Shown: in pieces, positions 13,870 through 57,031 of the stretch
Layout of the letters: each line of letters starts with the position of its first letter
Position numbering within the stretch: the first letter of the stretch is position 1
Assembly (NCBI GenBank): GCA_012965045.1
Contig: DTSZ01000001.1
Location: forward strand, 591,629-655,628
Length of the DNA: 64,000 bases
Direction of reading: 5' to 3'
Source: Candidatus Saccharimonadota bacterium
GTDB taxonomy: Bacteria; Patescibacteriota; Saccharimonadia; Saccharimonadales; DTSZ01
The notes under the pieces: generated by a model
The model's database searches: none
Told to the model about the DNA's origin: nothing
The model's input: only the letters and a program-made list of their open reading frames with translations
Made by a program: the position numbers and the translations under genes

Positions 13870-13873
13870 GTAG

Positions 13874-13902
13874 TTGACCCCTTAACCGCTTATGCTTATA
13901 AT
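13874..13902 (+). promoter_or_regulatory. Near-consensus sigma70-type promoter for the pilin gene. It overlaps pil-box copy 2.
   Basis: TTGACC (13874-13879), 17-nt spacer, TATAAT (13897-13902). GAGGAGGG RBS before ATG 13971. Confidence 0.65.
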
Positions 13903-13970
13903 TCCGTATAGATACGGCAAATAACGTATTCTTTATCAACAAATAAATAAATGAGGAGGGTGGACTCTCA

Positions 13971-14399: not shown

Positions 14400-14420
14400 C
14401 ATAGAGTTGTCTGAGTCAGT

Positions 14421-14452
14421 AAAAAACCTCCTCTAAACCAGGAGGTTTTTTT
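14421..14452 (+). terminator. Rho-independent terminator after the pilin gene.
   Basis: aacctcc-tctaaacca-ggaggtt followed by a T-run. Confidence 0.75.
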
Positions 14453-14460
14453 AATTTAAC

Positions 14461-14473
14461 TTATGCTTATGAT
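14461..14473 (+). promoter_or_regulatory. pil-box copy 3 (TTATGCTTATGAT) upstream of pilM.
   Basis: Exact 10-mer shared with the pilB and pilin upstream regions. A TATGAT -10-like hexamer is present. Confidence 0.45.
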
Positions 14474-14517
14474 ACTGATATAATTCATGTATAACTTGCG
14501 TGGGCAAAAAATAAAAA

Positions 14518-24237: not shown

Positions 24238-25683
24238 CTACTCAATCACTTCGCTGGCGTTTAGTTGGCTACCAGATTTTTTATAAAGAATTAAAATGAC
24301 ACCCAGGATTGATGCATAAACACCAATCATGCCAACTGTCGATAAATTAATGGTTACCAGCGCATAAGGAATTTGCGCTAACAATGTCACCAGCGAAGTT
24401 ATGAGTTCTAAAATAAATCGAGCTGGCCAAGCAAACCAACCAGCGAGTGGGGTTATGAGCCAACCGCTAAGACCGGCAATAAATGTCAAAAGCATGGCCA
24501 ACGGAATTAACGGCAAAATAATCGCATTGGCCAAAATTGCAATTAACGAAAATTCTCCAAAAATAGCGCCAATTAGCGGCATAGTTAATAACTGGGCGCA
24601 TGATGTTTCAAGCACTATTTGCATAATTGTGTTTGGTTTTTTGTCGCCGTACAGGCGTTTTGTAACCAGTGGCGCCAATATAAGCACGCCAATAAATGCC
24701 AGAAACGACAGCCACCAACCAAGATCACTCCATAAAAATTGCGGATTTAACCCAGCTGTGATTGCGCCGGACAATAACAGCAGCATAGTCGGGCTGACTT
24801 TTCGCCCCCAATACCACGCCAGCAAGGCCAGACTGGTCACCACCCCAGCACGAGCAATTGACGGACTTATACCTGTTATGGCGATAAAACTAATAATTAA
24901 CGCAAAAGAGCCACTGACAGCCCAGTACTTAGAAAATTTTGCCAAGCTACGCCGCATCAAACGCACTAAAATAGTAAGGTTGTAACCACTAACCGCAACA
25001 ATATGAGTTAGCCCCGTAACACTAAGTGCACTCAATAAATCATCTGGCAGCAAGGTTCTGCCACCAACTAAAAAACCGAGGCCTAAACTGCTCTCGGGTT
25101 CTGGTAATGAGCTGTACGTGCCGGCAAAAAAGTTCTTACGAACTGAGTTTATTGGGCTGTCTGTTCTGGCTAGAACATCTACTTGTGCAAACGAAATATC
25201 AGCATTATCGCTTCCATAGCCCGATTTAATCGTGCCGCGCACCTGCACCCTGTCGCCGCGCTGTAGACTCGTTATACCAAAACCAGAAACTTCTACCCTA
25301 CCCGGCAACTTATTTTCTTCGAACACAACCTGCCCTATGTGAAATTCTCTTTGAAAAAATCTATTGTAGACAGGATCATCTTCGACCACTCCCTCTATAA
25401 TCACCGATTGTCCCACTAGTTTTTCGTATACGTTAGTGGCACTAATTTCCTGTTGTCCGCGAATAAAACCAAGGCTCAATCCCAGTAACAGCGCTGCTAC
25501 TATTGCTGGCAATTTCTTTGTAAAAACTAAAGGCCCGCTCACTATTCCAAGTAATAGGATCGTTGCCGAAATAGTCGGCCAGTGCGCCGCCCACCACAGT
25601 CCAAGCAAAAATGTTAATAAAAATATCTGAATTTTTGTAGTTCGCCGAAAGCGAACTTGACCCAGGCGTAACAGATAAGGCAT
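24238..25683 (-). CDS. comEC: ComEC/Rec2 DNA-uptake channel, with the OB-like N-domain and competence domain but no metallo-beta-lactamase domain.
   Basis: 481 aa and multi-TM. LTGLTHIVAVSGYNLTIL competence-domain motif. Confidence 0.85.
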   Translation of the reverse strand: MPYLLRLGQVRFRRTTKIQIFLLTFLLGLWWAAHWPTISATILLLGIVSGPLVFTKKLPAIVAALLLGLSLGFIRGQQEISATNVYEKLVGQSVIIEGVVEDDPVYNRFFQREFHIGQVVFEENKLPGRVEVSGFGITSLQRGDRVQVRGTIKSGYGSDNADISFAQVDVLARTDSPINSVRKNFFAGTYSSLPEPESSLGLGFLVGGRTLLPDDLLSALSVTGLTHIVAVSGYNLTILVRLMRRSLAKFSKYWAVSGSFALIISFIAITGISPSIARAGVVTSLALLAWYWGRKVSPTMLLLLSGAITAGLNPQFLWSDLGWWLSFLAFIGVLILAPLVTKRLYGDKKPNTIMQIVLETSCAQLLTMPLIGAIFGEFSLIAILANAIILPLIPLAMLLTFIAGLSGWLITPLAGWFAWPARFILELITSLVTLLAQIPYALVTINLSTVGMIGVYASILGVILILYKKSGSQLNASEVIE

Positions 25684-28441: not shown

Positions 28442-28518
28442 TGGAGGGTCCAGTGGGACTCGAACCCACGACACCCTGCTTAAAAGGCAGGTGCTCTAAC
28501 CAGCTGAGCTATGGACCC
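28442..28518 (-). tRNA. tRNA-Lys (anticodon TTT), CCA encoded.
   Basis: Hand fold: acceptor GGGTCCA/TGGACCC, anticodon loop CTTTTAA, T-arm GTGGG-TTCGAGT-CCCAC, 77 nt. Confidence 0.95.
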
Positions 28519-29140: not shown

Positions 29141-30451
29141 TTATGCTTTTTTAGTTTTCACTGGAGTGACTTCGATTTTTACGGCCTGTTCAAGCCGGCG
29201 AATATCTGCCAGTAGATCCGATCGTGATTTATTGTGCAACGTAATGTTAAAGACGCTCTTGCCGCCGTTTTTAGCAAATTTACACATGTCACCCTTGGTT
29301 TTATTTATTTTTAAATTATAAAACGAGGTTAAAGCACGTGCTTTGTTCATTCCATTAATCTTTTCAAGTCGGCCCTCTTTGTTTGAGAAAAACTTCATGC
29401 TAGCTGTATAGCCTTGTCGTTTCTTTTTAATTATTGGCTTTCGACCAGTCCGAACCAAAAGGTCGTTATAGGCATGGTCAAATCCGTATGATAATTGATA
29501 CAGGTTCTGACGAAATCCACCCATCCGGCACGCTATTTCGACTATTTTAAAGCCCGTTAGTTCAGTCTTTATTACCTCAACATGAACTATTGTGTTGCGT
29601 AGTCCTAAAGCGTGAACGCCTTTTGCAGCCACCTGTTCCATGTCTTTAATTTTACGCGCCAGCAACTTAACTGGGGTCATTTGCTTGTAGCCAAAGAAAT
29701 CATCAAAACCAATCGCCCGGCCTGTCTTTATGTGTACCGGCGGCACAAAATCTACACGACCAGTATTATCAACGTAGCCATCTATTGAATACATAGTGCC
29801 TTCTAGAAACTGTTCGATTAGTACTTTTGGTTCACCACGCCCAGCATATGACTTATGTGCTGCCTTAACCTGTCGTAGGGTACGTTTTAAATTAGATACT
29901 AACTCTTCTTCGTGGTAGCAAATACTCACCAATACACTGGCGGCTAACCCGCTTGGCTTAATTACCAGCGGAAAACCAACTTTTCGTTTGATTTTTGAAA
30001 TAGTCTTGTCGCTAATGTCGGTAGCAATGGTATAAGCCGGTGTAATTTTTTTATCGTATTCGGTAAAACGTCGACGCATCAGTAATTTGTCGGTCGACCA
30101 GTTAATCGACGTTTCAGTCGGCGTTAATGTATATGGGACATGGGGTATAACCCGCTTAAAATTCTCCAACAAGTCCTCTGACCGACAAGTGATAGCAATT
30201 ACGCGGTGTAAGTATGGTAGAAGTGCTTCATGAATTTGTTTTGGTGATTTAAGATTTATTTCAATTTTTGTAAAATCTTTTTGAAAAACACTCTTATTAG
30301 CTTTTTGTGACTTATCAATAAGCCAAACACGTTGCAAAGGACGGCGGAGTTTTTTTTCAAGCTTATCAATGGCAATACTTAATGAATCACCCACATCTTT
30401 GCTGTCGGTGGCTAGTACAATGACGGTGTCTCTCGAAAATTGCTTCTCCAT
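29141..30451 (-). CDS. ATP-grasp domain ligase with an N-terminal extension.
   Basis: GFPLVIKPSGLAAS, LIEQFLEG..YSIDGYV and EIACRMGG are typical ATP-grasp blocks. Confidence 0.7.
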   Translation of the reverse strand: MEKQFSRDTVIVLATDSKDVGDSLSIAIDKLEKKLRRPLQRVWLIDKSQKANKSVFQKDFTKIEINLKSPKQIHEALLPYLHRVIAITCRSEDLLENFKRVIPHVPYTLTPTETSINWSTDKLLMRRRFTEYDKKITPAYTIATDISDKTISKIKRKVGFPLVIKPSGLAASVLVSICYHEEELVSNLKRTLRQVKAAHKSYAGRGEPKVLIEQFLEGTMYSIDGYVDNTGRVDFVPPVHIKTGRAIGFDDFFGYKQMTPVKLLARKIKDMEQVAAKGVHALGLRNTIVHVEVIKTELTGFKIVEIACRMGGFRQNLYQLSYGFDHAYNDLLVRTGRKPIIKKKRQGYTASMKFFSNKEGRLEKINGMNKARALTSFYNLKINKTKGDMCKFAKNGGKSVFNITLHNKSRSDLLADIRRLEQAVKIEVTPVKTKKA

Positions 30452-30633
30452 ATCTTGCTCAACATAGGCGTCTTTATCTGTTATGTCAAGTATTGTTTAT
30501 CCTAAAAACTGCAAAAAATCATCATATTTAATGCAATCATTTTTATATTCTGTAAAAGGTTATTTATTTTACAACGATTAACAGTTTAAAAAGCAGCTGA
30601 TTTTGTTACGCTTAAGGTAACTAAAGGTCAAAC

Positions 30634-32508
30634 ATGCGCTTACCAAAAAATGTAATATCACCACTTGGGTTGTCTCGTTACCAAGAACATGCCGCTCTGG
30701 TATATTCGTCAAAGCGCCGAGGCCACGGAAAATTAGGTCTAGCTCTCAGTGAAGACGGTCTTCATTTTAACGAGTCCGTTGATGCTCCGGTAATATTCAC
30801 CGGTCAAAACAAAACGGAATCAATTGCTGACACCAGCGACTACCGTTTTGCAAAAGTGGCTCACGACCACCTGCTTACCTACACCAAAAATGGCCGCTTA
30901 GTCATTGCACGAGAAGAAGAATCCGGCGACCTCTGGGACTTAGCAATCTGGAAAACACTACGAACAGGTAACCCACGTGCTACTAACGGCATGTTTGTGC
31001 CAGAGTATAAATACAACAATCAATACGTCTTGTTCTACAACACCAGCAGCATTAACTTTGCAGTCACAAAAGACTTTAAAGACTGGCACTCGCCATACCG
31101 CCCAGTTTTAGAGCCACGCCGACATAACTTTGATAACAAGTCTCTAAAAATAGTTTCAGTTGCAAACATTAGTAGTGGAATTGCTGTGTTGTACGAGTCG
31201 CAGTCAATGCGTAAGCGACAGCAAACTATTCATGTTGGGTTTGCTGTATTTTCGCGCCAAAACCCTGGTAAGTTAATCTGGCGCAGCGAAGGGCCGTTAT
31301 GGGCTGCCACAAACGCCGGTAGGTCAAAAATTGAACTCCTTGGTGCAGACATACAAAACGATTCTATTCGTTTATACGGTAGCTCTGTCTCCAACGGTCT
31401 ATTTACCGTCGACCTCCAACAACCGCTTAAGCTAGACGAAGTTAGCCGACCAAAATTCGAACTAGAGCGTCATCATAAAAACCCGTTGCTTAGCCCAGAA
31501 GGTGGCGAACACTGGGAGTCGTCAGGGGTATTTAACCCAAGCGTCGTCCACCACGAAGGCAAGGTGCATATTTTGTACCGTGCTGTTGACCCGTACGGCG
31601 TTAGTCATGTCGGTTATGCCAGCACAACCGACGGGTCAGAAATAGACTATCGGCACAACGAACCTTGCTACTGGCCACGCGCATGGTTTGAAGCTGGTAG
31701 AGGCAAACGGCCATATAAAGAATGGAATAAAGCCTTTGGTTCCGGCGGCGGCTGGGGCGGTTGCGAAGACCCTAAGGCAACACTTATGGATGACAAAGTC
31801 TACATGACCTATGTTGCCCACGACGGCAGCCCCTATTTGCGTTTATGTATAACATCAATTGATATAGATGATTTTGTAAATCATCGGTGGGATAAATGGG
31901 CATGGCCAAAAGTAATTAGTAACCCTCAATTTGGCCCACACGTTAATCCACCATTTGGAGTTCGTGTTATAAAAAGTGGAATAATCTTGCCAGAGAAAAT
32001 TAACGATAAATATGTGATTTTCTTCAAAGAACCGCCACATGTTGGCATTCATTATATTGACGATATCGAACGACTTGGTATTGATGAAGAGCTCGAAGCT
32101 CATGACTTCATATACACTCGCCCCGGTCATTGGGACAGTCAAAAACTCTCGATGGGATCGACTCCGATTTTAGTAAATGAAGGTTGGCTGGTTATATACC
32201 ACGCCGTCGATAAACGCGAAGGTCACAAATATAAAATTGGCGCTATGTTACTTGATAAGAACGATCCAAGTAAGGTATTGCGGCGCACCAATACCCCAAT
32301 TCTTGAACCTGATGCTGACTATGAAAACAACTGGAAACCTGGCGTTGCCTACCCATCTGGTGCGGCTATCATCGGTGATCAACTTCATGTGTATTACGGC
32401 GGTGGAGACCGACACGTCTGCGTTGCAACAACTCCCCTGCAAGAGTTCATGGACCATCTAATGAACGAAGAAGAAATTCACCTAACTGCAGAAGTCACGG
32501 TTAGTTAG
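30634..32508 (+). CDS. Two-module GH130-like glycoside phosphorylase/hydrolase. The N-terminal module is degenerate.
   Basis: GVFNPSVVHHEGKVHILYRAVD and GGCEDPKATLMDDKVYMTYVAHDG, the GH130/DUF377 signature. Confidence 0.75.
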   Translation: MRLPKNVISPLGLSRYQEHAALVYSSKRRGHGKLGLALSEDGLHFNESVDAPVIFTGQNKTESIADTSDYRFAKVAHDHLLTYTKNGRLVIAREEESGDLWDLAIWKTLRTGNPRATNGMFVPEYKYNNQYVLFYNTSSINFAVTKDFKDWHSPYRPVLEPRRHNFDNKSLKIVSVANISSGIAVLYESQSMRKRQQTIHVGFAVFSRQNPGKLIWRSEGPLWAATNAGRSKIELLGADIQNDSIRLYGSSVSNGLFTVDLQQPLKLDEVSRPKFELERHHKNPLLSPEGGEHWESSGVFNPSVVHHEGKVHILYRAVDPYGVSHVGYASTTDGSEIDYRHNEPCYWPRAWFEAGRGKRPYKEWNKAFGSGGGWGGCEDPKATLMDDKVYMTYVAHDGSPYLRLCITSIDIDDFVNHRWDKWAWPKVISNPQFGPHVNPPFGVRVIKSGIILPEKINDKYVIFFKEPPHVGIHYIDDIERLGIDEELEAHDFIYTRPGHWDSQKLSMGSTPILVNEGWLVIYHAVDKREGHKYKIGAMLLDKNDPSKVLRRTNTPILEPDADYENNWKPGVAYPSGAAIIGDQLHVYYGGGDRHVCVATTPLQEFMDHLMNEEEIHLTAEVTVS

Positions 32509-33721
32509 CCGGTTGTATTGTCTTCCATAGTTTTACTTGCAACCAATACGTTGCTAGTCCTCCAAAAGTTACAATCGCCCACACAGTACGCAAAAATAGC
32601 TCACTGTTGTCTAAGATATGAATAAGCCCAATAAAGAAGCCTAAGCCAACTAGTCGTGTAGAAAACTTAATCACCTCAAGAAGATAATTAAGTTGAAGTG
32701 TATTTCTTTGAACATCACTACCAAGCACAGCCTCGCGTAAGCTAATGTCTAAATCGTCATCTATGGGCTTCTCTATTGTCTGTGCGCCTTTTTCAATAAC
32801 AGCTCTGCCAATCAGGGCAGGCGCTTGCCAGGACGCCACTAAACCAAGTGTTGCTGCCACCCTAATTGAATGTAAGTAATACCCAAGCCGCAAGTTACCT
32901 TTTAGCTCCACATGGCGCCGTACATAGACAACTATCGCTGCAATTAAGGCAACTCCACTTACAAAAACACCGTAGCCAAAAATGCTACCTAGTATTAAAA
33001 ACGGAGCAATCTTCCAAAAATGACTTTGTAATTCATCCTGTAATGTATCAATGAAATAAATTCGCAAAAAGCGTTTCCATTCTGGGTGATTTTTTAGGCT
33101 ATTGAGGAAGGATTTTGATAAAAGCGGCGCTTTTGGTGGAATAGTATTGTTTTGATACGTCTTAAATAGACTCAGGAAGCTTAACAGGGCGGCAACAATC
33201 AAGAACGCTCGGTAGCCCACGACAAAATCCAGCAAAAACCCAATTATCAGTGGCAAAAATACACTCATGATTGTTTCGTAGCTTCCAGAAACTTGAAATA
33301 TATAGCTGCGCTGTTTGCTTTTCATTTCTTTTACAGCAACATAGTGTGAGCTTGTGTGATAAAAACCTGAGTCTATTCCTCGCATCACAGACAGCACCCA
33401 AAACCATGTAAACGGGTCTTGCTCAAGTAGTGGCCAGATTAAAATAGAAATAAATATAAGTACTGTTCGAAGATACCGCCCGTATACCCAAACGACACCA
33501 TAGCCTTTTTTGCGAAGTAGAACATTGGCAACAGTAATGCCTACCATGGTTGCACACGCTATAACTAATTTGTCTAAAAATACTAAAGTTAAAGAACCGC
33601 TCAAGACAAATAGAACAACACTGTAGAGTTCTCCCAAAATACCCCATATAAACAAGGCTGTCATTCTGTTATAAAAAAATTGCCGAACGACGTCGGCTTG
33701 AGACTTTAGCTCTAAAAACAT
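32501..33721 (-). CDS. Polytopic membrane protein, transporter-like (406 aa).
   Basis: Roughly 10-12 TM segments. Sits between the two GH130 genes. No specific motif. Confidence 0.6.
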   Translation of the reverse strand: MFLELKSQADVVRQFFYNRMTALFIWGILGELYSVVLFVLSGSLTLVFLDKLVIACATMVGITVANVLLRKKGYGVVWVYGRYLRTVLIFISILIWPLLEQDPFTWFWVLSVMRGIDSGFYHTSSHYVAVKEMKSKQRSYIFQVSGSYETIMSVFLPLIIGFLLDFVVGYRAFLIVAALLSFLSLFKTYQNNTIPPKAPLLSKSFLNSLKNHPEWKRFLRIYFIDTLQDELQSHFWKIAPFLILGSIFGYGVFVSGVALIAAIVVYVRRHVELKGNLRLGYYLHSIRVAATLGLVASWQAPALIGRAVIEKGAQTIEKPIDDDLDISLREAVLGSDVQRNTLQLNYLLEVIKFSTRLVGLGFFIGLIHILDNSELFLRTVWAIVTFGGLATYWLQVKLWKTIQPAN

Positions 33722-33764
33722 GACATTAGCATAGCAGCATCACATCATAGAAGCTGCTACAATA

Positions 33765-35687
33765 GTGTTTATGTTTACAGTAACCAGAAATAAAAAGAAT
33801 CCAATCATAAAAAGTAATAACGACGAGCCGTGGCGTGCGTTGGCAGCGTTTAACTGTTCGCCGGCTAAAGTAGGCGACTCGCTTCATTTAGTATTTCGGG
33901 CAATGACCGACGAAGCCCTGTACAAGGGTCACAACGTCGAGCTATCGACCATAGGACATGTAATGGTTGACCCTCAGACACACCATTCCATCGGAGAATA
34001 CAAAGTCCTTATACAGCCCGAAGAAGACTGGGAGATGTATGGCTGCGAAGACCCGCGGGTAACTAAAATTGATGACACATACTATATTTTCTACACCGCT
34101 CTGAGTGGTTTTCCATATTCGGCTGAAAATATTAAATGTGCCGTGGCGACCACCAAAGACTTTAAGACAATCGACAGCCGGCAACTGGTAACACCGTTTA
34201 ATGCTAAGGCCATGGCGCTTTTTCCAGAAAAAGTCGACGGTAAATGGACTGTTATTTTGACTGCAGATAGCGACAAGCCACCTTCTAAAATGGCTATAGC
34301 TCAAAGTGACAATTTTGATGATTTTTTAAATCATGACTGGTGGGCAAATTGGTATGAAGAAGTTGAACACCATAATATTGACCTGCGCCGCGTGGATACT
34401 GACCACTGCGAAGTTGGCGCACCTCCAATAAAAACTGATGCGGGCTGGCTCCTTATCTACAGCCACATCCAAGATTACTTTACCGACGACAAGGTTTTTG
34501 GAATCGAAGCTGTTTTATTAGACAAAGACAACCCACGAAAAATTATCGGCCGTACTCGCTACCCATTTATGGTGCCAGAAGAAAGCTACGAACAATATGG
34601 ACAACTGCCAGACATCGTTTTTCCAAGCGGAGCTATGTTGGATGGCGACATCCTAACAGTTTTTTATGGAGCTGCCGACACAACTTGCGCCTCTGCTAAA
34701 TTGCGGCTGTCACACCTGCTTGAATCTATGCAGATGGAAGGAAAAAGTTACGCGAAACGCTACAGTGGCAATCCGATTCTACTCGCTAAAGAAGAAAATT
34801 ACTGGGAAAGCAGCTATGTCCTAAATCCTTCAGCAATAGAAATTGACGGCGAAATAAATATTCTTTACCGAGCGCTTGGGCCTGACAACACATCTGTTTG
34901 CGGCCTAGCAATTACAAAAGATGGCTACACAATTGACGAGCGTCTTGATGAGCCAATCTACATACCGCGGGCTAAATTTGAGTCAAAGCTTAAACCACCA
35001 GACGGCATATCTGGCTGCGAAGACTTGCGGGCCCAAATTATCGGTGATCGAATTTTTGTAACCTACACAGGCTACAATGGCGTTGACCCTCCGGCTGTCG
35101 CAGCAAGTTCGATTTCTATTGAAGAATTTAAAAACCGCAAGTTTCAATCTTGGACCGAGCCTCACCTAATTAGTCCGGTTGGCATCGACGACAAAGATGC
35201 TGCAATTTTTAGTGAAAAAATAAACGATCAGTACCTTGTATTTCATAGAATTGACCACCATATATGCGCCGACACCCTACCAGAACTAGATTTTGAAAAG
35301 CATCAGCTTGACCGCTGTATCCAGGTTATGGGACCGCGTAAAGGCATGTGGGACAGTCTAAAAATTGGAATCAATGGTCCGCCGATAAAAACCGAAAAGG
35401 GTTGGTTGCAGTTCTACCACGGCATTAACGAGCATCACCACTACCTTATGGGGGCCGCGTTGCTAGATCTTAAAGATCCAACAAAAATCATTGGGCGATC
35501 TGCTATGCCAATAATGGAACCTGAAACCCAGTGGGAACTTGAAGGTTGGATAGACAATGTTATTTTTAGTTGCGGTCAAGTTGTTCGCGACGACACAATT
35601 TTTATTTATTATGGTGGCGCTGACACAGTTGTGGCTGTGGCAACATTAAGCTTGTCGGAGCTTTTGAGCCAACTCAACGAGGCTTAG
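33765..35687 (+). CDS. Tandem-GH130 protein with two complete modules.
   Basis: YGCEDPRVTKIDDTYYIFYTA and SGCEDLRAQIIGDRIFVTYTGYNG. Two FPSG/YYGGAD C-terminal blocks. Confidence 0.8.
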   Translation: MFMFTVTRNKKNPIIKSNNDEPWRALAAFNCSPAKVGDSLHLVFRAMTDEALYKGHNVELSTIGHVMVDPQTHHSIGEYKVLIQPEEDWEMYGCEDPRVTKIDDTYYIFYTALSGFPYSAENIKCAVATTKDFKTIDSRQLVTPFNAKAMALFPEKVDGKWTVILTADSDKPPSKMAIAQSDNFDDFLNHDWWANWYEEVEHHNIDLRRVDTDHCEVGAPPIKTDAGWLLIYSHIQDYFTDDKVFGIEAVLLDKDNPRKIIGRTRYPFMVPEESYEQYGQLPDIVFPSGAMLDGDILTVFYGAADTTCASAKLRLSHLLESMQMEGKSYAKRYSGNPILLAKEENYWESSYVLNPSAIEIDGEINILYRALGPDNTSVCGLAITKDGYTIDERLDEPIYIPRAKFESKLKPPDGISGCEDLRAQIIGDRIFVTYTGYNGVDPPAVAASSISIEEFKNRKFQSWTEPHLISPVGIDDKDAAIFSEKINDQYLVFHRIDHHICADTLPELDFEKHQLDRCIQVMGPRKGMWDSLKIGINGPPIKTEKGWLQFYHGINEHHHYLMGAALLDLKDPTKIIGRSAMPIMEPETQWELEGWIDNVIFSCGQVVRDDTIFIYYGGADTVVAVATLSLSELLSQLNEA

Positions 35688-35690
35688 ACC

Positions 35691-37046
35691 GTGCCACGGG
35701 CAAAGAAAAAACAACCAACATCGACGACCACTACGAAAACAATTGAACAAGCTAAAAAAGTCTTAGACATAAATTTTAAAGATGGCTACACTATGCCATC
35801 AAAAGTACTCTACCCGCACCAATGGTTATGGGATTCGTGTTTTCATGCAATTGGCCTACGGCACCACCGTCCAGATCGTGCACTGGAAGAAATCAAACTG
35901 TTACTACGGGGCCAATGGCCAAATGGTATGGTGCCGCATATGATTTTTAGTGGCGCCAAGCACGGACATCAACGCTACAATATTTGGAAGTCACATGTCT
36001 GTGACGACTGTGTTGTCGGCCTGAGGACCAGTGCAATCACGCAACCGCCTGTCATTGCTTGGGCGTTCGAAAAGGTAGTAAATAGCCTGCCCAAAAAAGA
36101 TCAAAAAGCAGCTATCGAAAAATACCTGCCGCAGATAATTCGCTATCATCAGTGGCTGTATGCAGACCGTGACCCTGACCAAACAGGTCGCATTGTAATT
36201 ATTCACCCGTGGGAAAGTGGCCTCGACAACAACCCAGCACTAATGGCAGCACTGCGTGAATGTTTCCCTGTGAATACCAGTGAAAAAATATTTTTGACCA
36301 ACCCTTTTGTACGCGGTGTATACCACAAGCTTCGTAAAGACATTCAAGTCACGAGCGCTGCCGAGCGAAGTCGAACTGTTGAAAACTGGATGTTTGCACG
36401 ACTTATTGCCCGGTATCGTCGCAAGCTCTATAAAACCGAAGCCATCTTATATGATAAAAATAGCTTCGTTGTTGAGGATGTTAGCTTTAACGCAATATTT
36501 ATTCGGTCTAATGCCGCTATAAAAACTCTGGCGAAAAAAATAAAACTCACACTGCCAGACGACTTAACTCAAGCAATGGACCGTAGCGACGCAGCGTTTG
36601 CTGATTTCTGGAACGACGACAAACAAGCATATTTATCGCGCAACTGGCACACCAAACAATCAATTCCAATTGAAACGATCGAAGAATTACTGCCACTCAT
36701 AACTTCTATTATCCCCAAATCAAATGCTAAAAAAATTGTCACAAAACTTGAATCAAATAACTTTTTCACACCTAAGCCGGTATCCACAAACAACACAGCG
36801 CGCGACGACTACGACCCTATTCGTTATTGGCAAGGCCCAGTATGGGTAAATATGAACTGGATGATTATCGAAGGACTAAAGAACTACGGCTATACCAAAA
36901 AAGCTAAAGACCTCGCCAATTCAACAATTAAATTAGTCGAAGAAAATGGCATATGGGAGTACTACAATTCGCAGACTGGCATGGGCCACGGAATCAGCAG
37001 TTTTTCCTGGACCGCAGCTTTGTATTTAGACTTAATTAATTCCTAA
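35691..37046 (+). CDS. GH63-like (alpha/alpha)6 glycoside hydrolase of the mannosylglycerate/glucosylglycerate hydrolase type.
   Basis: LYPHQWLWDSCFHAIGL, IIHPWESGLDNNP and YWQGPVWVNMNWMIIEGL. GTG start. Confidence 0.7.
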   Translation: MPRAKKKQPTSTTTTKTIEQAKKVLDINFKDGYTMPSKVLYPHQWLWDSCFHAIGLRHHRPDRALEEIKLLLRGQWPNGMVPHMIFSGAKHGHQRYNIWKSHVCDDCVVGLRTSAITQPPVIAWAFEKVVNSLPKKDQKAAIEKYLPQIIRYHQWLYADRDPDQTGRIVIIHPWESGLDNNPALMAALRECFPVNTSEKIFLTNPFVRGVYHKLRKDIQVTSAAERSRTVENWMFARLIARYRRKLYKTEAILYDKNSFVVEDVSFNAIFIRSNAAIKTLAKKIKLTLPDDLTQAMDRSDAAFADFWNDDKQAYLSRNWHTKQSIPIETIEELLPLITSIIPKSNAKKIVTKLESNNFFTPKPVSTNNTARDDYDPIRYWQGPVWVNMNWMIIEGLKNYGYTKKAKDLANSTIKLVEENGIWEYYNSQTGMGHGISSFSWTAALYLDLINS

Positions 37047-37379
37047 CTCAACTTCTTCCGCTCTAAATTCTACAAGTTCTCGGATGCGATCATCAACATA
37101 CTGACTTCTTTCAAGAAAGTTCATTCCGCCTAAAATTTGGTCACGTTCACTGACATCGCCAGTCAACCCAGCAGCAATGTCGTCCCTAATTGCAGATTCT
37201 CTACAAGCCTTGCGCACTAATACTGGGCAAGTGTCGCATATAGCCTTTGCTATTTCTTCCCTGCTTCGACGTGCATTTATGCCTTCAGGTCTCAAATCGT
37301 CAGGAGGAAAAAATAAGTCACCCTCTCCGACACATGGTTTTGCTGTTAATGACATCTTTTTATCTAAATCTACAAACAC
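37032..37379 (-). CDS. WhiB-like (Wbl) Fe-S transcription factor candidate with a C-terminal extension.
   Basis: KPCVGEGDLFFP ... AKAICDTCPVLVRKAC gives four Cys, the FFP motif and a CxxC-PV pattern. AAGGAG RBS 7 nt before GTG 37379. Confidence 0.55.
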   Translation of the reverse strand: MFVDLDKKMSLTAKPCVGEGDLFFPPDDLRPEGINARRSREEIAKAICDTCPVLVRKACRESAIRDDIAAGLTGDVSERDQILGGMNFLERSQYVDDRIRELVEFRAEEVELGIN

Positions 37380-37475
37380 TGCCTTGCTCCTTTTATATAA
37401 AAACTACTCTTTGCTTTTGTAATCTGTCAAGTTCGTTGTTTATTTAAGTGGCACGAAAATGGACATAGTAGTGTT

Positions 37476-38102
37476 CTATGTATCGTTTATCAACAAGTTA
37501 ATCTGACTACTGTCTGCTGGCATATCCCATCTACTCCACTCATCACGGTATCTCTGAAACTCTTCGTCGGGAACCTTATGTAAATGTTTTGGATTAAAGA
37601 CTCGTTGGAACCAACGGATTCCATTCAAGTGATCGACTTCATGCTGTACGATCCGTGCAACAAATCCACTGAATTTATTTATGACAACTTCACCGTATTC
37701 ATTGTGCCAACGAACCTCTACCGCCTCAGAACGTTTAACAACACCGCCATAGCCTGGTAACGAAAAACACCCTTCTCGATCTTCTGCTTGATTGCTACTA
37801 GCCCAAGTTATTACAGGATTTATCATAAAAATATTATTTGGCGTCGGATTAACAGCTTTTGGGTCTGCATCAATATCAACTAAAATCACCCGAGCGTTCC
37901 AACCAATTTGCGGGGCAGCCAGTCCGACCATAGTTTTTGTGCCGGGTGTTGGGTCTTGTATAACTCCAGCAATTTTTTGCATTTGCAGGAGCGCATTTTT
38001 AAATGCAATCGACTTATAATCAATGATCTCTGCAGTTACTTTTTTCAATAGGGGATTGCTTGGTTCTAAGATACTAAATTTATCTTTTTCCCCATCTTCC
38101 AT
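37476..38102 (-). CDS. def: Peptide deformylase.
   Basis: GLAAPQIG, EGCFSLPG and HEVDHLNG. Confidence 0.92.
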   Translation of the reverse strand: MEDGEKDKFSILEPSNPLLKKVTAEIIDYKSIAFKNALLQMQKIAGVIQDPTPGTKTMVGLAAPQIGWNARVILVDIDADPKAVNPTPNNIFMINPVITWASSNQAEDREGCFSLPGYGGVVKRSEAVEVRWHNEYGEVVINKFSGFVARIVQHEVDHLNGIRWFQRVFNPKHLHKVPDEEFQRYRDEWSRWDMPADSSQINLLINDT

Positions 38103-38125
38103 CTTCTAACTACCAGCTTCTAAAT

Positions 38126-39253
38126 CTACAGCCATTTCTTGCCTTTTTTGGTTCTAAATTCTTCGAGTATTTTCTTTTGTTTTTTGCTCAGTTTGGTTGG
38201 CGTGTCTACAAGTACGCGTACAATGTGGTCGCCACGTGATTTACCGCGTAAACTCGGCACACCTTTGTTGGCAATTTTAAAATCTGTACCACTTTGGGTC
38301 CCAGCAGGAATTTTTAGCTTTTCTTTCCCATCAACGGTTTCTAGTTCAATTTCTGTTCCTAGCGCTGCGTCTACCATTGGCACGTGTTCGTCGCTTAAGA
38401 TTAAATTACCTTCTCTCGTGAAGTGCTTATGTGCTTTAACGCGCACATTTACATATAAGTCGCCAGCGTTTCCGTTTGAGGCAACTTCACCGCGGCCAGT
38501 AAGCCGAATCGTAGCTCCATCATAAATACCAGCAGGGACTTTAAGCGTAGTTTTTTTACTCTGTCGAGTAACACCACTGCCACCACATACGCTACATTTT
38601 TTCTCTGGAATTTTCCCTTCACCCTTACATGTCCGACAGGTTCTGGCTTGCTGAAAATTACCAAGCGGCGTTTGCATTACTTGTACTTCTTGACCGCTCC
38701 CTTTGCAGGTGTCACATGTTTTTACATCGTGACCAGGCTCTGCTTTTGTCCCTTTACAATGCTCACATACATCTAGAAGGCTTAGTTCAACTTCTTTTTC
38801 GGTACCAAAAATTGATTCTTCAAATGTTAACTGGACGTTTGTCTCAACATCGCGGCCACGTTCGGTTTGTGTCCTAGTTCGCCGGCCACCACCGCCGCCA
38901 CCAAAAAATCCTTCAAAAATATCACCAAGTCCAAGGTCGCCTAAGTCAACATGTACTCGCTGGCCAGACCCGCCACCAAACCCACCAAAAATGTCTTCAA
39001 AACCACTAAAACCAGCTCCGCCGCCACCGCTCGCTCCGCCAACACCAGCATGTCCGAACTGGTCGTAGCGTTGGCGCTTGCTTTCATCTTTTAATACTTC
39101 ATAGGCTTCAGAGGCTTCTTTAAATTTAGCCTCGTCACCGCCTTCTTTATCTGGGTGATGCTTAATAGCCAATTTTCTAAAAGCCTTTTTTATCTCGTCT
39201 GCGCTGGCGGATTTACTAACTCCTAAAATTTCGTAGTAATCTCGTTTAGCCAT
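38126..39253 (-). CDS. dnaJ: Chaperone DnaJ.
   Basis: J-domain HPD, G/F region and four CxxCxGxG zinc motifs. Confidence 0.97.
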
Positions 39254-40081
39254 TTAATTTGCCTTTTTGAATGCCTTTATAATCAAATCACTCGGTATTA
39301 ACCGCGTTTCGCTGGCGCTACCTGTCATTACATCGTTAACGCGCTCTTCGTGCGTAAGGTAAATTACCTTTGCGCCATTTTTTTCCGCTGCAAGCATGGC
39401 TGGTTTTAGGTCTTGGTCACTACTCCACAGTACAACAGTATCTACGTTATTGGTTGCTGCCGCTTCCGTCATATCTACCGCTAAGCTAACATCTACACCT
39501 TTTTCGTTAAACGACAGCTCATCCTTTTTAGTAATTGGATTAATACTTGGTCGAATAACTAATTTACCAGCTGCAACAAACTCAACTCCACTATTTGATA
39601 AATAGCCTATCCAGCGTCGTTTATGATCTATCATCTTTAGCGTGCGTTTTTTAAGCTCTGGGTCATCATGTTCTTCGTGTAATTTTGCGCCGTAATACCT
39701 GTCTTCGCGCGGGCCTAGGTCGCCCAACATGTGATTCAGTAACATTTCCATGTCAAACTTCACTAAATCGTCGCGGAATTTTATCAGCTTGGCTTTTCGA
39801 AGCTCGTCAAACAGTTGAAAAAACGTATTTTCACCGTCAATATACACAACTGTTCGGCCACTTTCTGCCTTGGCCGGTGGTGTTGATTGCGCCTTAGTTT
39901 GGGGTTTACGCCTACTCGTAGAATCGTTCTTTTTTGATGCTGGATTTTTTGCGTTATTGCCGCCTGAATTTGATCGGCTAGACGGTTTTTTGCCCGCCTT
40001 GTCTTCTGCCTCATACACATCGTCCAATGCACTCAGCAAGTCTTGTTCTTTTCGTTCTTTAAAACTTAATTTTTTCTTCAT
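39254..40081 (-). CDS. NYN/LabA-like (PIN-like) domain protein with a basic disordered N-terminus.
   Basis: VVYIDGENTF and VDTVVLWSSDQDLKPAMLAAEKNGAKVIYL. Its stop abuts the dnaJ start. Confidence 0.7.
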   Translation of the reverse strand: MKKKLSFKERKEQDLLSALDDVYEAEDKAGKKPSSRSNSGGNNAKNPASKKNDSTSRRKPQTKAQSTPPAKAESGRTVVYIDGENTFFQLFDELRKAKLIKFRDDLVKFDMEMLLNHMLGDLGPREDRYYGAKLHEEHDDPELKKRTLKMIDHKRRWIGYLSNSGVEFVAAGKLVIRPSINPITKKDELSFNEKGVDVSLAVDMTEAAATNNVDTVVLWSSDQDLKPAMLAAEKNGAKVIYLTHEERVNDVMTGSASETRLIPSDLIIKAFKKAN

Positions 40082-40096
40082 TAGCTACAGTCTATC

Positions 40097-40213
40097 TTAC
40101 TTATCGGTAATTTTTTGCTTAATTTCTTCAACATCACTAGCAATTTTCTCTAAATTTGCGTTCATTTTACTTAGTGCTGCTTGTAAATCTTCAACTAATT
40201 CACGTGGGTTCAT
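40097..40213 (-). CDS. Candidate 38-aa coiled-coil peptide (MNPRELVEDLQAALSKMNANLEKIASDVEEIKQKITDK).
   Basis: Hand-found ORF that starts 5 nt after the upstream stop, with AAGGG 10 nt upstream. Below the ORF-track length cutoff. Confidence 0.4.
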   Translation of the reverse strand: MNPRELVEDLQAALSKMNANLEKIASDVEEIKQKITDK

Positions 40214-40218
40214 TGTCT

Positions 40219-40563
40219 CTAACCCTTATCAAAATCTGCTTTGCAGAGTTGGCAATATGATTTCAGTGATCCATACTTAATGAGAGGTGATCTAACTTGG
40301 TCTTTGTCATAACAGGCGATACAAAACCTCAGATTTCCAAAATTTAAATTACCAGTCGCTACTAGCCAAGCCCTGCCGCTGGAGTCAACCTGTAGTTTAC
40401 CTTTTGATGTAATCTTATCAATTTCGTCTTTTAGTTTCTTATTTTCGAGCTGCAAATCAAAGATTTTTTGCTGCGCTTCAAGAATCATATTAAATTCGTC
40501 AATTTTATCTGCAGCGCGTAACGTAGCGCCTGCTTGTTTTAGCCCTTCTAAAACACTAACCAT
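40219..40563 (-). CDS. Coiled-coil protein with a C-terminal CxxC...CxxC zinc ribbon (114 aa).
   Basis: FCIACYDKD...YCQLCKADF. The ATG lies 2 nt after the dnaK stop. Confidence 0.6.
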   Translation of the reverse strand: MVSVLEGLKQAGATLRAADKIDEFNMILEAQQKIFDLQLENKKLKDEIDKITSKGKLQVDSSGRAWLVATGNLNFGNLRFCIACYDKDQVRSPLIKYGSLKSYCQLCKADFDKG

Positions 40564-40565
40564 TG

Positions 40566-42485
40566 CTACTTGTCTTCTCTCTTCTCATTCACAACTTCAC
40601 CCTCTACAGGTTCATCAGACTCTTTGTCGTCTTTCTTGTCGTCGTCACTAGACTCACTACTCTCTTCTCCGTCCTCTGAAGCTGTTTTAGCTGCTTCTTT
40701 ATACATCTTCGCACCAATCGGAGATACCTTATCAAGTAGTGTCTTAGCAGCTTCTTCGAGCTTCTCTTTATCCGTTTCTTCTTGAGATTTCTTAGCTTCC
40801 TCAATTGCTTCTTCAACTGTCTTCTTATCTTCGTCGGACAATTTGTCGCCGTTTTCGTCGATCAGTTTCTGGCCAGTATATATAGCGTTTTCTAATGCGT
40901 TTTTAGCTTCTACTGCTTCGCGTTTTTTCTTGTCTTCTTCAGCGTGAGCTTCGGCATCTTTTTGAGCTTTTTCAATCTCGTCTTTATCTAAGTTGCCGCT
41001 GTCTTTAATAGTAATCGACTGTTCTTTGCCAGTACCTTTGTCTTTGGCCGTAACATTCAAAATTCCGTTAGCGTCAAGATTAAAAGTTACTTCAACTTGC
41101 GGAACACCGCGTGGCGCTGGGGCGATGCCGTCTAAAACAAATCTACCGAGTGATTTGTTATCGGCTACCATTTCTCGTTCACCTTGAACAACATGAACTT
41201 CAACACTTGGCTGGTTGTCTGCTGCTGTTGAAAAAATTTCGCTCTTACTAGTCGGGATAGTAGTGTTTCGTTCAATCAACTTGGTTGTAACGCCACCTAA
41301 GGTTTCTATACCAAGGCTTAGTGGAGTGACGTCTAGAAGCAGCACGTCTTTAACGTCACCTGCTAGTACGCCACCTTGAATCGCAGCACCTACAGCTACA
41401 ACTTCGTCAGGGTTTACACCTTTAAGCGGTTCTTTGCCAAAGATCTCCTTAACTTTAGCTTGCACTGCTGGCATTCGGGTCATACCACCAACCAAAATGA
41501 CTTCGTCGATTTCGCTGGCTTTAAGCTTGGCGTCTTTTAACGCGTCGAGACACGGCTTAGCAGTTTTTTCGATGAGCTTACTTACTAGCTGCTCAAGCTT
41601 GCTACGAGTAAGTTCGTATTCGAAGTTAAGTGGTCCTTCTGCTAAGAACGGTAAGTTAATTTCACTGCTTTGTGCACTCGAAAGCTCAATTTTAGCTTTT
41701 TCAGCAGCCTCTTTAAGCCGCTGCATTGCTTGTGCGTCACCTTTAAGGTCTTTGTCGTGGTCTTTTTTAATTACGTCAAGTAAGTGATTAACAATGACAA
41801 GGTCGAAGTCTTCACCACCAAGGTGAGTATCGCCGTTGGTAGACTTAACTTCAAACACGCCGTCACCTAGCTCCAAGATTGATACGTCAAATGTTCCACC
41901 GCCAAGGTCAAACACGGCAATTTTTTCATCTTTTTGCTTATCAAGACCGTAGGCTAAGGCTGCTGCGGTTGGTTCGTTAATGATTCGCTTAACTTCCAAG
42001 CCAGCAATTTTACCAGCGTCTTTTGTTGCCTGACGCTGGCTGTCGTCAAAGTACGCTGGAACCGTAATTACAGCTTGAGTAACTTTGTCACCTAAATATG
42101 CCTCTGCGTCAGCCTTGAGCTTGCTCAAAATCATTGCTGAAATTTCTTCTGGACTTTGTTCTTTGCCGTCGAGCATTACTCTAGGTTGGTCGTTTTTACC
42201 CTTAACAATCTTATACGGCATAATGTCGATGTCGCGTTGCACTTCTTCGTCTTTAAACTTACGACCAATAAGTCGCTTAACACCAAAAACAGTGTTTTCT
42301 GGGTTGGTGACCCGTTGTCGGTAAGCAACCTTACCAACTAAGCGATTTTTATCTTTACCAATAGCTACAACGCTTGGTGTAGTTCTATCACCTTCGCTGT
42401 TAGCGATAATTTGCGGGCTACCGCCTTCCATAACAGCCATAGCGCTGTTGGTTGTTCCTAAATCTATTCCAATTATCTTTGACAC
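40566..42485 (-). CDS. dnaK: Chaperone DnaK (Hsp70).
   Basis: [18 protein letters not shown] and full-length Hsp70 collinearity. Confidence 0.98.
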
Positions 42486-42791
42486 TTTTTCCTCCTAAGT
42501 TTTGCAACGTAGCTCTCTGCCCGCGAACAAATTTCGCTGCTCCAGAGCTACTTAAAGCGCATTACTTCGTCAAAACCTACATCACTCGTTCGAAGTACTA
42601 TTTGTACATCTCACTCGTTTTTTGGCTTTTCCTTGTACTGCATCTTTATGCAAAGCTTAGGAGCTAAAAAGCTAGTTACCTGAAAATCTTCTTGCTTGAA
42701 TTTATTAAATTACTTTTTACGAATCACTAGTTACCAAATACGAACTACTGATTCCTAGCAGTTACCTGCCACCAGTGCTAGTTTAGCAGAA

Positions 42792-42818
42792 TTAGCACTC
42801 ACGGTGCAAGAGTGCTAG
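42792..42818. promoter_or_regulatory. CIRCE operator (TTAGCACTC-N9-GAGTGCTAG) upstream of dnaK.
   Basis: Matches the HrcA operator consensus TTAGCACTC-N9-GAGTGCTAA at 17 of 18 positions. Confidence 0.85.
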
Positions 42819-44895: not shown

Positions 44896-44922
44896 TTAGC
44901 ACTCAAATGTCCAGAGTGCTAA
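44896..44922. promoter_or_regulatory. Perfect CIRCE operator (TTAGCACTC-N9-GAGTGCTAA) upstream of hrcA.
   Basis: 18 of 18 match to the consensus. Confidence 0.9.
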
Positions 44923-55999: not shown

Positions 56000-57031
56000 C
56001 TATTTTAGCACTTCCATACGTGGAGTGCTAATCCGCACAATTGATGAAATTTGCTTCTGGTGCTTGAGCTCTATTCTACTGCCAAGTTCGGTAATTTTAC
56101 TAGGTAAAGACGCATTAATCGAGTCTGCTCCCCTCGTAATTTGCTCTGTATTGAGCTCGGCATCGCTATTTAATCGCAACACCAAAAACCTCAGTAGCTC
56201 ATGTTGTATTTTTTGATCGAGACTTGAAAAAGCCTGCCTGTCGACGTTAATGCGTGCACCCTGTTTATCAGAAACCGCTTTTTCGATACCACCTAACAAC
56301 TCGTCGATTTCTGCATTAATTGTAAGCATGCGGCTGTATATTTTTTGTAGTTTTTTAGACGTATTTTGAGCCCGCCCCAGCTTTGCTCGAATTGCATTAC
56401 GGGTATAGGTGTTGTCTTTGTTGGTTGAATCCTCGACAAACTCTATATTATGCGCAACACAGTACTCATAAATTTGATTTTTAGTTACGTTTAATAACGG
56501 CCGTTTTATATGCAGCGTTTCTTTTAGTGACGTCAACCCACTCCGCCCCGTTCCCCGTTGAAGGTTAATAAGAATTGTTTCCGCAATATCGTCGGCATGG
56601 TGGGCGGTAATAATTGCAGTGGCATCATGCTTTACGCGAAGGTCGTGCAAAAACTCCCACCGACCGGCACGGGCAGCTGCTTCACTTTTTTTAGGCAGTG
56701 TGAGTTTAGTTGATACGTAGTTGAGCTTATATTTTTGCGCAAGTTCGCGCACAAAGCGCTCATCGTCGCTGCTGTCGGTACGCCAACCATGGTCAACATG
56801 CGCTACGATAAGTTCGTATCTATTTTTTATTTTTCTTTTTTCACCTTTCATTGATTTTTCATTATTCGGTTGATCATTGGTAGATTCTAAATTATTCCGA
56901 ACCAGCCTGTCTGTGGGCAAGACTGCGAACTGCGAACTGCGAACTGCTAGCCTGTGCAGCAGCACAACCGAATCTACCCCACCAGACACTGCCACAATGT
57001 ACTTCCCTGGTTTCGGCCATAAAATTTCCAT
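56000..57031 (-). CDS. tilS: tRNA(Ile)-lysidine synthase TilS, with a roughly 40-aa insert after the PP-loop.
   Basis: VAVSGGVDSVVLLH PP-loop, AHVDHGWR, TAHHADD. Start set at ATG 57031. Confidence 0.85.
   Translation of the reverse strand: MEILWPKPGKYIVAVSGGVDSVVLLHRLAVRSSQFAVLPTDRLVRNNLESTNDQPNNEKSMKGEKRKIKNRYELIVAHVDHGWRTDSSDDERFVRELAQKYKLNYVSTKLTLPKKSEAAARAGRWEFLHDLRVKHDATAIITAHHADDIAETILINLQRGTGRSGLTSLKETLHIKRPLLNVTKNQIYEYCVAHNIEFVEDSTNKDNTYTRNAIRAKLGRAQNTSKKLQKIYSRMLTINAEIDELLGGIEKAVSDKQGARINVDRQAFSSLDQKIQHELLRFLVLRLNSDAELNTEQITRGADSINASLPSKITELGSRIELKHQKQISSIVRISTPRMEVLK
56005..56031. promoter_or_regulatory. CIRCE-like operator (TTAGCACTT-N9-GAGTGCTAA) 37-63 nt upstream of ftsH, overlapping the last codons of tilS.
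   Basis: 17 of 18 match to the CIRCE consensus. Confidence 0.75.
56923..56947. repeat. Tandem heptamer (CTGCGAA) x 3.6 inside tilS.
   Basis: ctgcgaactgcgaactgcgaactgc, which encodes AVRSSQFAV on the minus strand. Confidence 0.9.

Follow-up and report, generated by a model that had tools for sequence, protein, structure and literature searches.

WhiB-like (Wbl) proteins govern cell division and virulence in Actinobacteria, as well as the intrinsic resistance of these bacteria to antibiotics. To our knowledge, the regulators of bacteria belonging to the Candidate Phyla Radiation (CPR) are almost entirely uncharacterised. In this work we have analysed a wbl-like gene located in a 64-kb stretch of DNA (contig DTSZ01000001.1; the whole stretch is hereafter called the window), which is carried by a chromosome of the Saccharimonadales (Saccharibacteria/CPR) and for which a preliminary description had been made from the sequence.

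Wbl proteins were considered exclusive to Actinobacteria in a review from 2018 (PMC6282962), to which a structural paper from 2026 adds the actinophages (PMC13013590). According to the latter work, sigma binding is the common mode of Wbl action: holo-Wbls dock on the His516-Pro517 pair of sigmaA region 4 (sigmaA4), and the substitution H516A abolishes the binding of WhiB6 and WhiB4 from Mycobacterium tuberculosis. The Wbl aromatic patch comprises four positions, AP1 to AP4, which correspond to W3, F17, F18, and W60 in WhiB1; in 98.7% of Wbls at least two of them are aromatic, including at least one of AP2-3, and phage Wbls bind host sigmaA4 through this same patch (PMC13013590). Contacts of canonical Wbls with DNA are established by basic C-terminal residues or by an AT-hook (PMC6282962, PMC13013590). 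In full-text searches of the literature, no description of a Wbl from Saccharibacteria or CPR was encountered.

Results

Domain, Conserved Residues, and Predicted Fold

The product of the wbl-like gene (MFVDLDKKMSLTAKPCVGEGDLFFPPDDLRPEGINARRSREEIAKAICDTCPVLVRKACRESAIRDDIAAGLTGDVSERDQILGGMNFLERSQYVDDRIRELVEFRAEEVELGIN; translated open reading frame, ORF) consists of 115 amino acids and contains exactly four cysteines, with the spacing C16-X31-C48-X2-C51-X7-C59; the motifs CVGEGDLFF and CDTCPVLVRKAC were checked by translation. The Pfam family Whib (PF02467/IPR034768) matched the protein over profile positions 11-61 of 65 with 38.3 bits (gathering score 23.6; E = 1.9e-9), and the precomputed Pfam label on P0001 agreed with this assignment. 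Seven WhiB-like families matched in the PHROG search (E < 1e-3), and no family did in the NCBIfam search. The best sequence match in the PDB was WhiB3 of M. tuberculosis (E = 2.5e-5), further matches being Streptomyces WhiB and M. tuberculosis WhiB4 (E = 0.12 and 0.65, respectively); neither WhiB1 nor WhiB7 was matched at E ≤ 10.

Conservation was scored in an alignment of 95 Wbls, made up of this protein and 94 others. The four cysteines occupy columns conserved in 94 to 95 of the 95 sequences, F23 and F24 (AP2 and AP3) lie in columns with phenylalanine in 94 of 95 each, and G71 and G74 of the turn are kept. With two of the four patch positions aromatic, AP2-3 among them, the protein lies at the lower limit of the aromatic-patch rule. 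The V53-L54 insertion that makes the spacing CX7C was found in one of the 95 aligned Wbls, and CX2CX7C is also present in 6 other proteins among the 59 matches of the HMMER scan described below. Neither basic C-terminal residues for DNA contact nor an AT-hook were found; the isoelectric point (pI) of the protein is 4.66, and the tail formed by residues 76-115 has a net charge of -5.2 and a pI of 4.4. The triplet preceding the turn is IAA, a position occupied by class-specific triplets such as EPW or EPY, and orthology to classes I-V (WhiB1/WblE, WhiB2/WhiB, WhiB3/WhiD, WhiB4/WblA, WhiB7/WblC) was not supported.

An AlphaFold2 model built on the 95-sequence Wbl alignment had a mean predicted local distance difference test (pLDDT) score of 79.4, with helices at residues 20-23, 27-48, 53-65, 78-84, and 88-112. 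The predicted arrangement is that of the Wbl fold, in which h1-h3 surround the cluster and are followed by the turn and then by h4. As judged by Pfam, PHROGs, and the predicted fold, this is a Wbl-domain protein. It combines the profile match and the fold of the family with the absence of GVWGG and of a basic tail and with an occurrence outside the Actinobacteria and their phages, and none of the five classes includes it. The segment ILGGM (82-86) was considered as the true turn, since it aligns with IMGG of P0047, a distant relative compared at the end of this article; the AlphaFold2 model and Pfam favoured GLTGD, GGM being a helix break.

All but one of the sequence features given in the preliminary description were borne out. 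The Wbl hallmarks, the length of 115 amino acids, and the four cysteines agreed with the ORF list and the translation; AAGGAG was read 7 nt before GTG; the 15-nt overlap of the 3' end with the convergent GH63-like gene was found at 37032-37046; and the third and fourth cysteines are indeed 7 rather than 5 residues apart, through the V53-L54 insertion. The GVWGG turn is degenerate, as described, and the losses go further, affecting the AP1 Trp, the AP4 Trp, and the Arg of h4. The extension of about 45 amino acids that had been reported at the C-terminus exists, but its length had to be corrected: 40 amino acids follow the turn, the first 10 or so match the normal helix h4, and the true addition is, according to the model, one extra helix of about 25 amino acids (residues 88-112). 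The comparison with PF02467, which had been proposed as a check, gave the significant match of 38.3 bits.

The gene is real. Its 115-amino-acid product was called on at least nine contigs, including a scaffold of 929,678 bp. An in-frame ATG at codon 9 was considered as the start because the N-terminus of P0047 is short; it was set aside as the main model, for it lacks a Shine-Dalgarno sequence, is used by no recorded gene caller, and would give a product that none of the assemblies has on record. No signal peptide or recognisable secretion tag was seen when the N-terminus (MFVDLDKKMSLTAKP) was inspected by eye.

Relatives of the Protein

When 1.84 billion cluster representatives were scanned in full with HMMER (cut-off E < 1e-3), 59 proteins were matched, the best one other than the protein itself at E = 3.4e-7. 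Wbl motifs were present in all of them except one repeat-rich protein of 743 amino acids, and most were rich in Arg and Ala, like those of high-GC (guanine plus cytosine) Actinobacteria. A broad non-actinobacterial family of 4-Cys proteins, placement in which would have refuted the preliminary description according to its own terms, was not found among these 59 matches. All named relatives came from Actinomycetota or actinophages (Acidimicrobiia and Streptomyces; plasmids of Rhodococcus, Streptomyces, and Dietzia; Thermobifida phage P1312). The closest actinobacterial, plasmid, or phage Wbl showed about 40-50% identity over about 60 amino acids, and no phage or viral contig exceeded 37-43% identity over a similar length (about 60 amino acids); in IMG/VR, scanned with a two-sequence alignment as query, the matches reached 37-40%. 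The longest BLASTP alignments, covering 83% of the protein at 36-40% identity, were obtained with the P0101 family from a phage-like contig of 144 kb.

On core-domain columns, the distance of the protein to its nearest neighbour was 1.10 (median 0.49), the second largest among 171 Wbls, so that in this analysis it appears as an isolated long branch without a supported placement. Word-index homologue searches, performed both with the single protein and with a two-sequence profile, retrieved only the protein itself and P0047. No relative appeared in an exact-8-mer scan of 185,579 species-representative genomes, a negative result limited by the need of this method for exact matches. A Wbl ORF was not found in the dnaK neighbourhoods (about 20 kb) of 46 other Saccharibacteria; in one relative (L028), the whole def-wbl-GH63-GH130-MFS-GH130 block is missing between dnaJ and the ATP-grasp homologue.

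Host Chromosome, Assembly Support, and Composition

The DnaK encoded in the window was 71-79% identical to the DnaK of about 45 metagenome-assembled genomes (MAGs) named Candidatus Saccharibacteria, Saccharimonadales, Nanosyncoccus, or Microsaccharimonas, vs. 62-67% for non-CPR phyla, and the gene order gmk-hrcA-grpE-dnaK-...-dnaJ is common to the window and many Saccharibacteria MAGs. Housekeeping genes of the window include rny, recA, recX, pilB/pilC/pilM, ruvB, yebC, comEC, lepA, murJ, ftsH, and tilS. The identical wbl-like gene and neighbourhood were present in JGI ('Mariner' samples 3300001678 and 3300001522), ENA, and Logan assemblies; in ENA ERZ23486381, the window lies at around 291-348 kb of a single scaffold (ANAN14-1_SAMN02727529_METAG-scaffold_1; 929,678 bp), whose length is that expected of a nearly complete Saccharibacteria genome. 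This repetition across independent assemblies, together with the length of that scaffold and the surrounding housekeeping genes, makes a chimera or a prophage very unlikely. The wbl-like gene is therefore carried by a Saccharimonadales chromosome, outside the Actinobacteria and actinobacteriophages to which the family has been restricted.

The wbl-like gene has a GC content of 41.7%, with 29% at third codon positions (GC3), as compared to 43% and 38.8 ± 3.6%, respectively, for the window (50 genes in the case of GC3). Among samples of the same size, its GC3 stood at the 2.4th percentile, towards AT-richness, and its codon-usage likelihood was ordinary (29th percentile). Such a host-like composition lends no support to the idea that the gene was imported recently from an actinobacterial host of high GC. 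It may stem from an older transfer that has since been fully ameliorated, or from a low-GC donor such as a phage or an actinobacterium of low GC.

The broader claims of the preliminary description fared unevenly in the light of these data. The putative CPR genome was supported by the DnaK identities (71-79%), the heat-shock synteny, and the 929,678-bp scaffold, and the restriction of Wbls to Actinobacteria and their phages is the view of both papers cited above (PMC6282962, PMC13013590). The composition and codon usage that it suggested examining proved to be host-like, with GC3 displaced to the AT-rich side. A transfer from host to symbiont, which it had also put forward, found no positive evidence: GC and codon usage are host-like, no close actinobacterial Wbl was detected, and the protein lies on an isolated long branch.

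Genomic Neighbourhood and Features of the Locus

The wbl-like gene is the last of a dnaK-hyp114-NYN-dnaJ-def-wbl string, with 96 nt between the end of def and its own start. No convincing terminator was found in this gap, and read-through transcription from dnaK-def into the gene is possible on these grounds. The three CIRCE (controlling inverted repeat of chaperone expression) sites of the window, where 0.01 are expected by chance, indicated a classical HrcA/CIRCE heat-shock regulon, ftsH included, in this Saccharibacterium. The final position in a CIRCE string, the 96-nt gap, and the lack of a convincing terminator make a stress-linked expression of the wbl-like gene plausible. A TTGACA/TAGTTT pair upstream of the gene is a candidate promoter of its own, with a weak -10 box; it was not called in a consensus promoter scan, whose promoter-like sites were no commoner than in shuffled sequences. 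Table 1 collects the coordinates.

Table 1. Features of the wbl-like gene and its surroundings, with positions in the window (sigma factor loci: positions in their own contigs).
Feature	Position	Strand	Basis and remarks
wbl-like gene	37032-37379	-	ORF list; 115 amino acids, GTG start, TAA stop at 37034-37032
Shine-Dalgarno sequence AAGGAG	37387-37392	-	Sequence reading; 7 nt (caaggca) between AAGGAG and GTG at 37379
Candidate own promoter of the wbl-like gene	37401-37430	-	Sequence reading; TTGACA (37430-37425), 18 nt, TAGTTT (37406-37401)
Cys16, first predicted [4Fe-4S] ligand	37332-37334	-	Translation; invariant column (95/95 Wbls)
Phe23-Phe24, aromatic-patch AP2-AP3 (equivalents of WhiB1 F17 and F18)	37308-37313	-	F in 94/95 in both columns
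C48-X2-C51-X7-C59 motif (CDTCPVLVRKAC) with two-residue V53-L54 insertion	37203-37238	-	Translation and alignment
Degenerate beta-turn GLTGD (residues 71-75) in place of G[V/I]WGG	37155-37169	-	In loop 66-77 of the model
Wbl domain (Pfam-matched residues 19-80)	37140-37325	-	Pfam
Predicted extra acidic C-terminal helix, residues 88-112 (FLERSQYVDDRIRELVEFRAEEVEL)	37044-37118	-	AlphaFold2 model; block mean pLDDT about 86-92
Tail-to-tail overlap of the wbl-like gene and the GH63/MGH1-like hydrolase gene (35691-37046, +)	37032-37046		15 nt
Co-directional string: CIRCE (42792-42818), dnaK, hyp114, 38-amino-acid ORF, NYN, dnaJ, def	37476-42818	-	Upstream of the wbl-like gene
CIRCE (HrcA operator) inverted repeats	44896-44922, 42792-42818, 56005-56031		Perfect at the start of hrcA; one mismatch upstream of dnaK and of ftsH
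Sugar-utilisation block	29141-37046		GH63/MGH1-like hydrolase, two GH130 genes, weak MFS-like transporter, ATP-grasp ligase
Saccharibacteria-type RpoD loci	L004 1462-2433; L014 4025-4999; L114; L169	L004 +; L014 -	Tail KLRK[HN]K[DE]xKKLHEYL

On its other side, the wbl-like gene adjoins a block of sugar-utilisation genes encoding glycoside hydrolase (GH) family members and a weak match to the major facilitator superfamily (MFS). Its two GH130 genes are mannoside-phosphorylase-like, encode about 625-640 amino acids, and have long N-terminal extensions. The block was absent from the other Saccharibacteria dnaK neighbourhoods examined, save for an ATP-grasp homologue in two relatives. An island integrated at tRNA-Lys (28442-28518) was considered and rejected, the GH/wbl block lying on the 5' side of the tRNA according to a reading of the coordinates only, with no repeat search run.

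Between dnaK and dnaJ lie a gene for an NYN-domain RNase-like protein (39254-40081, minus strand) and another for a Cys-containing hypothetical protein of 114 amino acids (40219-40563, minus strand); the latter had no Pfam match, and neither of the two gave a tblastn match in any of the Saccharibacteria loci compared. Type IV pilus genes (pilB-like T2SSE, pilC-like T2SSF, and pilM) and comEC occur at 10668-15639 and 24238-25683. Saccharibacteria episymbionts use type IV pili and DNA uptake, which these genes fit. In addition, a protein of 592 amino acids with three lamin-tail-domain repeats, encoded at 6287-8065 on the minus strand, may be a surface or adhesion protein.

Discussion

We consider it rather likely that the wbl-like gene encodes a real, lineage-specific and highly divergent Wbl of the Saccharimonadales, which would sense redox state or stress by means of a [4Fe-4S] cluster and modulate RNA polymerase through contact with a protein and not with DNA. 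The cluster would be bound by Cys16, Cys48, Cys51, and Cys59 in the middle of a small bundle of helices, and Phe23-Phe24, beside it, would form a hydrophobic face for docking on a partner, which in the classical case is the primary sigma factor (region 4). Because such a cluster is labile to O2, NO, and redox changes, partner binding, and hence transcription, would respond to oxidative or nitrosative stress. Basic C-terminal residues and an AT-hook are absent and an acidic amphipathic helix is found instead, so the protein most likely does not contact DNA and works solely by binding other proteins, as a modulator or adaptor. Its additional acidic helix would contact a second protein or mediate self-association. 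The end position in the CIRCE/HrcA-controlled dnaK-dnaJ-def string suggests that expression accompanies the stress response.

Several results weigh against this reading. The second hallmark of the family, G[V/I]WGG, is degenerate (GLTGD at 71-75): the AP4 Trp of the turn, present in 93 of 95 Wbls, is T73, and the last glycine (94 of 95) is D75. The AP1 Trp (89 of 95) is replaced by S10 and the Arg of h4 (93 of 95) by Q81. Deprived of the Trp residues by which it is shielded, the cluster could be very labile or not be formed at all. A Foldseek search of the model against PDB and BFVD gave nothing significant. Co-transcription with dnaK-def was deduced from position only, and the TTGACA box could be a promoter of the gene itself.

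A further difficulty concerns the sigma factor. Tails of RpoD were obtained from a degenerate-pattern scan of metagenome contigs, and the following statements cover the matches listed. The four Saccharibacteria-type RpoDs (L004, L014, L114, and L169) end in KLRK[HN]K[DE]xKKL, not in KLRHPSRS; other CPR-like sigma factors, with L179, L148, L170, and L141 recorded alongside, end in ..I[RQE][EK]H...KKLKDY and do not have KLRHPSRS either, a motif which contains the His-Pro pair and is kept by the typical bacterial and actinobacteria-type primary sigmas of the same scan. No RpoD from a 'Mariner' contig was among them, rpoD is not in the 64-kb window, and no sigma gene was found within 10 kb beyond either edge. 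By analogy with the four other Saccharibacteria-type RpoDs, the canonical His-Pro docking site is probably absent from the RpoD of this organism, which makes canonical docking on its own sigma doubtful. Apart from Wbls, the loss of the His-Pro motif in CPR sigma factors is possibly of interest in its own right.

The partner of the wbl-like protein is therefore uncertain. More tentatively than the reading given above, we propose a functional Wbl-type [4Fe-4S] sensor outside the Actinobacteria, in a CPR episymbiont, which has been remodelled by losing the Trp shield and the DNA-binding tail and by gaining an acidic helix. It would either bind a sigma without the His-Pro pair through a new interface or, as a more radical possibility, reach or affect the sigmaA of a host actinobacterium, as phage Wbls do. 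With either partner, such a sensor would break the Actinobacteria/actinophage rule and provide a minimal Wbl for dissecting the cluster and the FF pair.

Other explanations have less in their favour. The protein could be a Wbl-derived Fe-S or thiol-disulfide protein with no role in transcription, serving, for example, to buffer redox changes, to reduce protein disulfides, or to assist DnaK, DnaJ, and Def in a chaperone-like manner. Some mycobacterial Wbls have been claimed to act as disulfide reductases or in a chaperone-like way. Apart from the cysteines, all hallmarks but FF have been lost, the basic tail is missing, and the gene comes immediately after dnaJ and def in a string under CIRCE control. 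However, gene adjacency is weak evidence and the def-wbl-GH block is not conserved in relatives. Sigma binding is now seen as the common Wbl mode (PMC13013590), and the FF pair is retained; having no obvious role in thiol chemistry, this pair argues for a docking surface. We therefore regard a non-transcriptional function as unlikely.

Somewhat less likely still is a decaying relic of an old phage or actinobacterial acquisition, in which the frame remains open and functional constraint has gone. The near-orphan status of the protein would fit this view (second-best match at E = 3.4e-7 among 1.84 billion representatives, and the second-longest nearest-neighbour distance among 171 Wbls), as would its location in a variable region absent from relatives and the DDE transposase beside its only relative, P0047. 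The frame is nevertheless intact and preceded by a strong ribosome-binding site, the four ligand cysteines and the FF pair are retained, and the model is confident even for the novel helix. The helix motif RELVEFR is conserved as RELIEVR in P0047 at an overall identity of 33%, which implies selection, and dead genes would rarely be kept in reduced genomes of 0.9 Mb.

We also considered, as a poor candidate, an effector or mimic directed at the host: like the actinophage Wbls, the protein would titrate or re-programme the sigmaA of an actinobacterial host cell, keeping only the cluster and the FF docking face and having lost the DNA-binding tail. The acidic tail and the missing DNA-contact residues are as expected from such a protein, the window contains type IV pilus and competence genes, and, among the matches listed, His-Pro is lacking in the Saccharibacteria-type RpoDs and KLRHPSRS is kept in actinobacteria-type tails. 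Phage Wbls do bind host sigmaA4 by the same aromatic patch (PMC13013590), and cultured Saccharibacteria are epibionts of Actinobacteria (PMC12369343). Yet inspection of the N-terminus by eye revealed neither a signal peptide nor a recognisable secretion tag, no gene of a secretion system lies next to the wbl-like gene, and the protein, being an Fe-S protein, would need to pass through two envelopes. The AP1 and AP4 Trp that aid sigmaA4 binding in actinobacterial Wbls are absent, the gene is placed among housekeeping heat-shock genes, and an actinobacterial host for this environmental lineage is an assumption.

An artefact, by which the gene would come from co-assembled actinobacterial or actinophage DNA in a chimeric contig or prophage, is essentially refuted: the named relatives are actinobacterial or actinophage in every database searched, but the def-wbl-GH63 arrangement recurs in independent JGI, ENA, and Logan assemblies and in the 929,678-bp scaffold, GC and codon usage are host-like, the flanks contain no phage genes, there is a 15-nt overlap of the 3' end with the neighbour gene, and the conserved Saccharibacteria heat-shock cluster extends on the 5' side.

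A chromosomal Wbl in a Saccharibacterium is a counter-example to the rule that these proteins occur only in Actinobacteria and actinophages. As the cultivated members of the phylum live on Actinobacteria, the gene bears on gene flow among CPR episymbionts, their hosts, and the phages of these hosts. Having kept only its Cys ligands and FF pair, the protein is a natural minimal variant with which to test the hallmarks required for cluster binding and docking, and it raises the question of whether a Wbl can function with a sigma that lacks the His-Pro pair. The finding concerns a single gene from a single environmental lineage, together with one relative, itself distant.

That relative, P0047, is a protein of 99 amino acids from a Logan contig of 1.8 kb (SRR13378641; 45% GC) that is 33% identical to the wbl-like protein over 92 amino acids. 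Only P0047 shares the full architecture, with the long spacer between Cys4 and the helix, the I[LM]GG break, and the acidic C-terminal helix, in which RELIEVR corresponds to RELVEFR; both genes also have a low-GC context and an AAGGAG ribosome-binding site. P0047 differs in having CX5C spacing, CVCV instead of CDTCP, and no GLTGD-like turn, and it is not the nearest neighbour of the wbl-like protein on core-domain columns alone. It adjoins a DDE transposase, whereas the wbl-like gene is chromosomal among heat-shock genes. On the 45% GC contig (L083), a DDE_Tnp_1 transposase is encoded at 582-1229 (minus strand) and P0047 at 1451-1750 (plus strand), a vicinity hinting at a possible mobility of the subfamily among organisms of low GC.

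Among described Wbls, the WhiB3/WhiD class (M. tuberculosis WhiB3, PDB 8cwr/8cyf) shares with the wbl-like protein the four cysteines, the FF-type pair after Cys1, the helical bundle, and the SER(D/E) start of h4. In contrast with this class, the wbl-like protein has CX7C instead of CX5C and GLTGD instead of GVWGG, lacks the AP1 and AP4 Trp and the basic C-terminal DNA-contact residues, and possesses an extra acidic helix, a pI of 4.7, and a non-actinobacterial host. In comparison with WhiB1 of M. tuberculosis (PDB 6ono/5oay), F23 and F24 are the equivalents of F17 and F18, whereas W3 and W60 have no aromatic counterparts (S10 and T73), and in place of R73 and R74, which bind DNA in WhiB1 (PMC6282962), the protein is rich in Asp and Glu. 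Actinobacteriophage Wbls (PHROG 14304, 472, 12112, and others; WhiB of Thermobifida phage P1312) matched the protein at E = 2.6e-8 to 1e-6 in the PHROG search. They are small accessory proteins and very variable, some of them lacking one aromatic-patch residue (PMC13013590); the wbl-like gene differs from them in being chromosomal, with no phage context.

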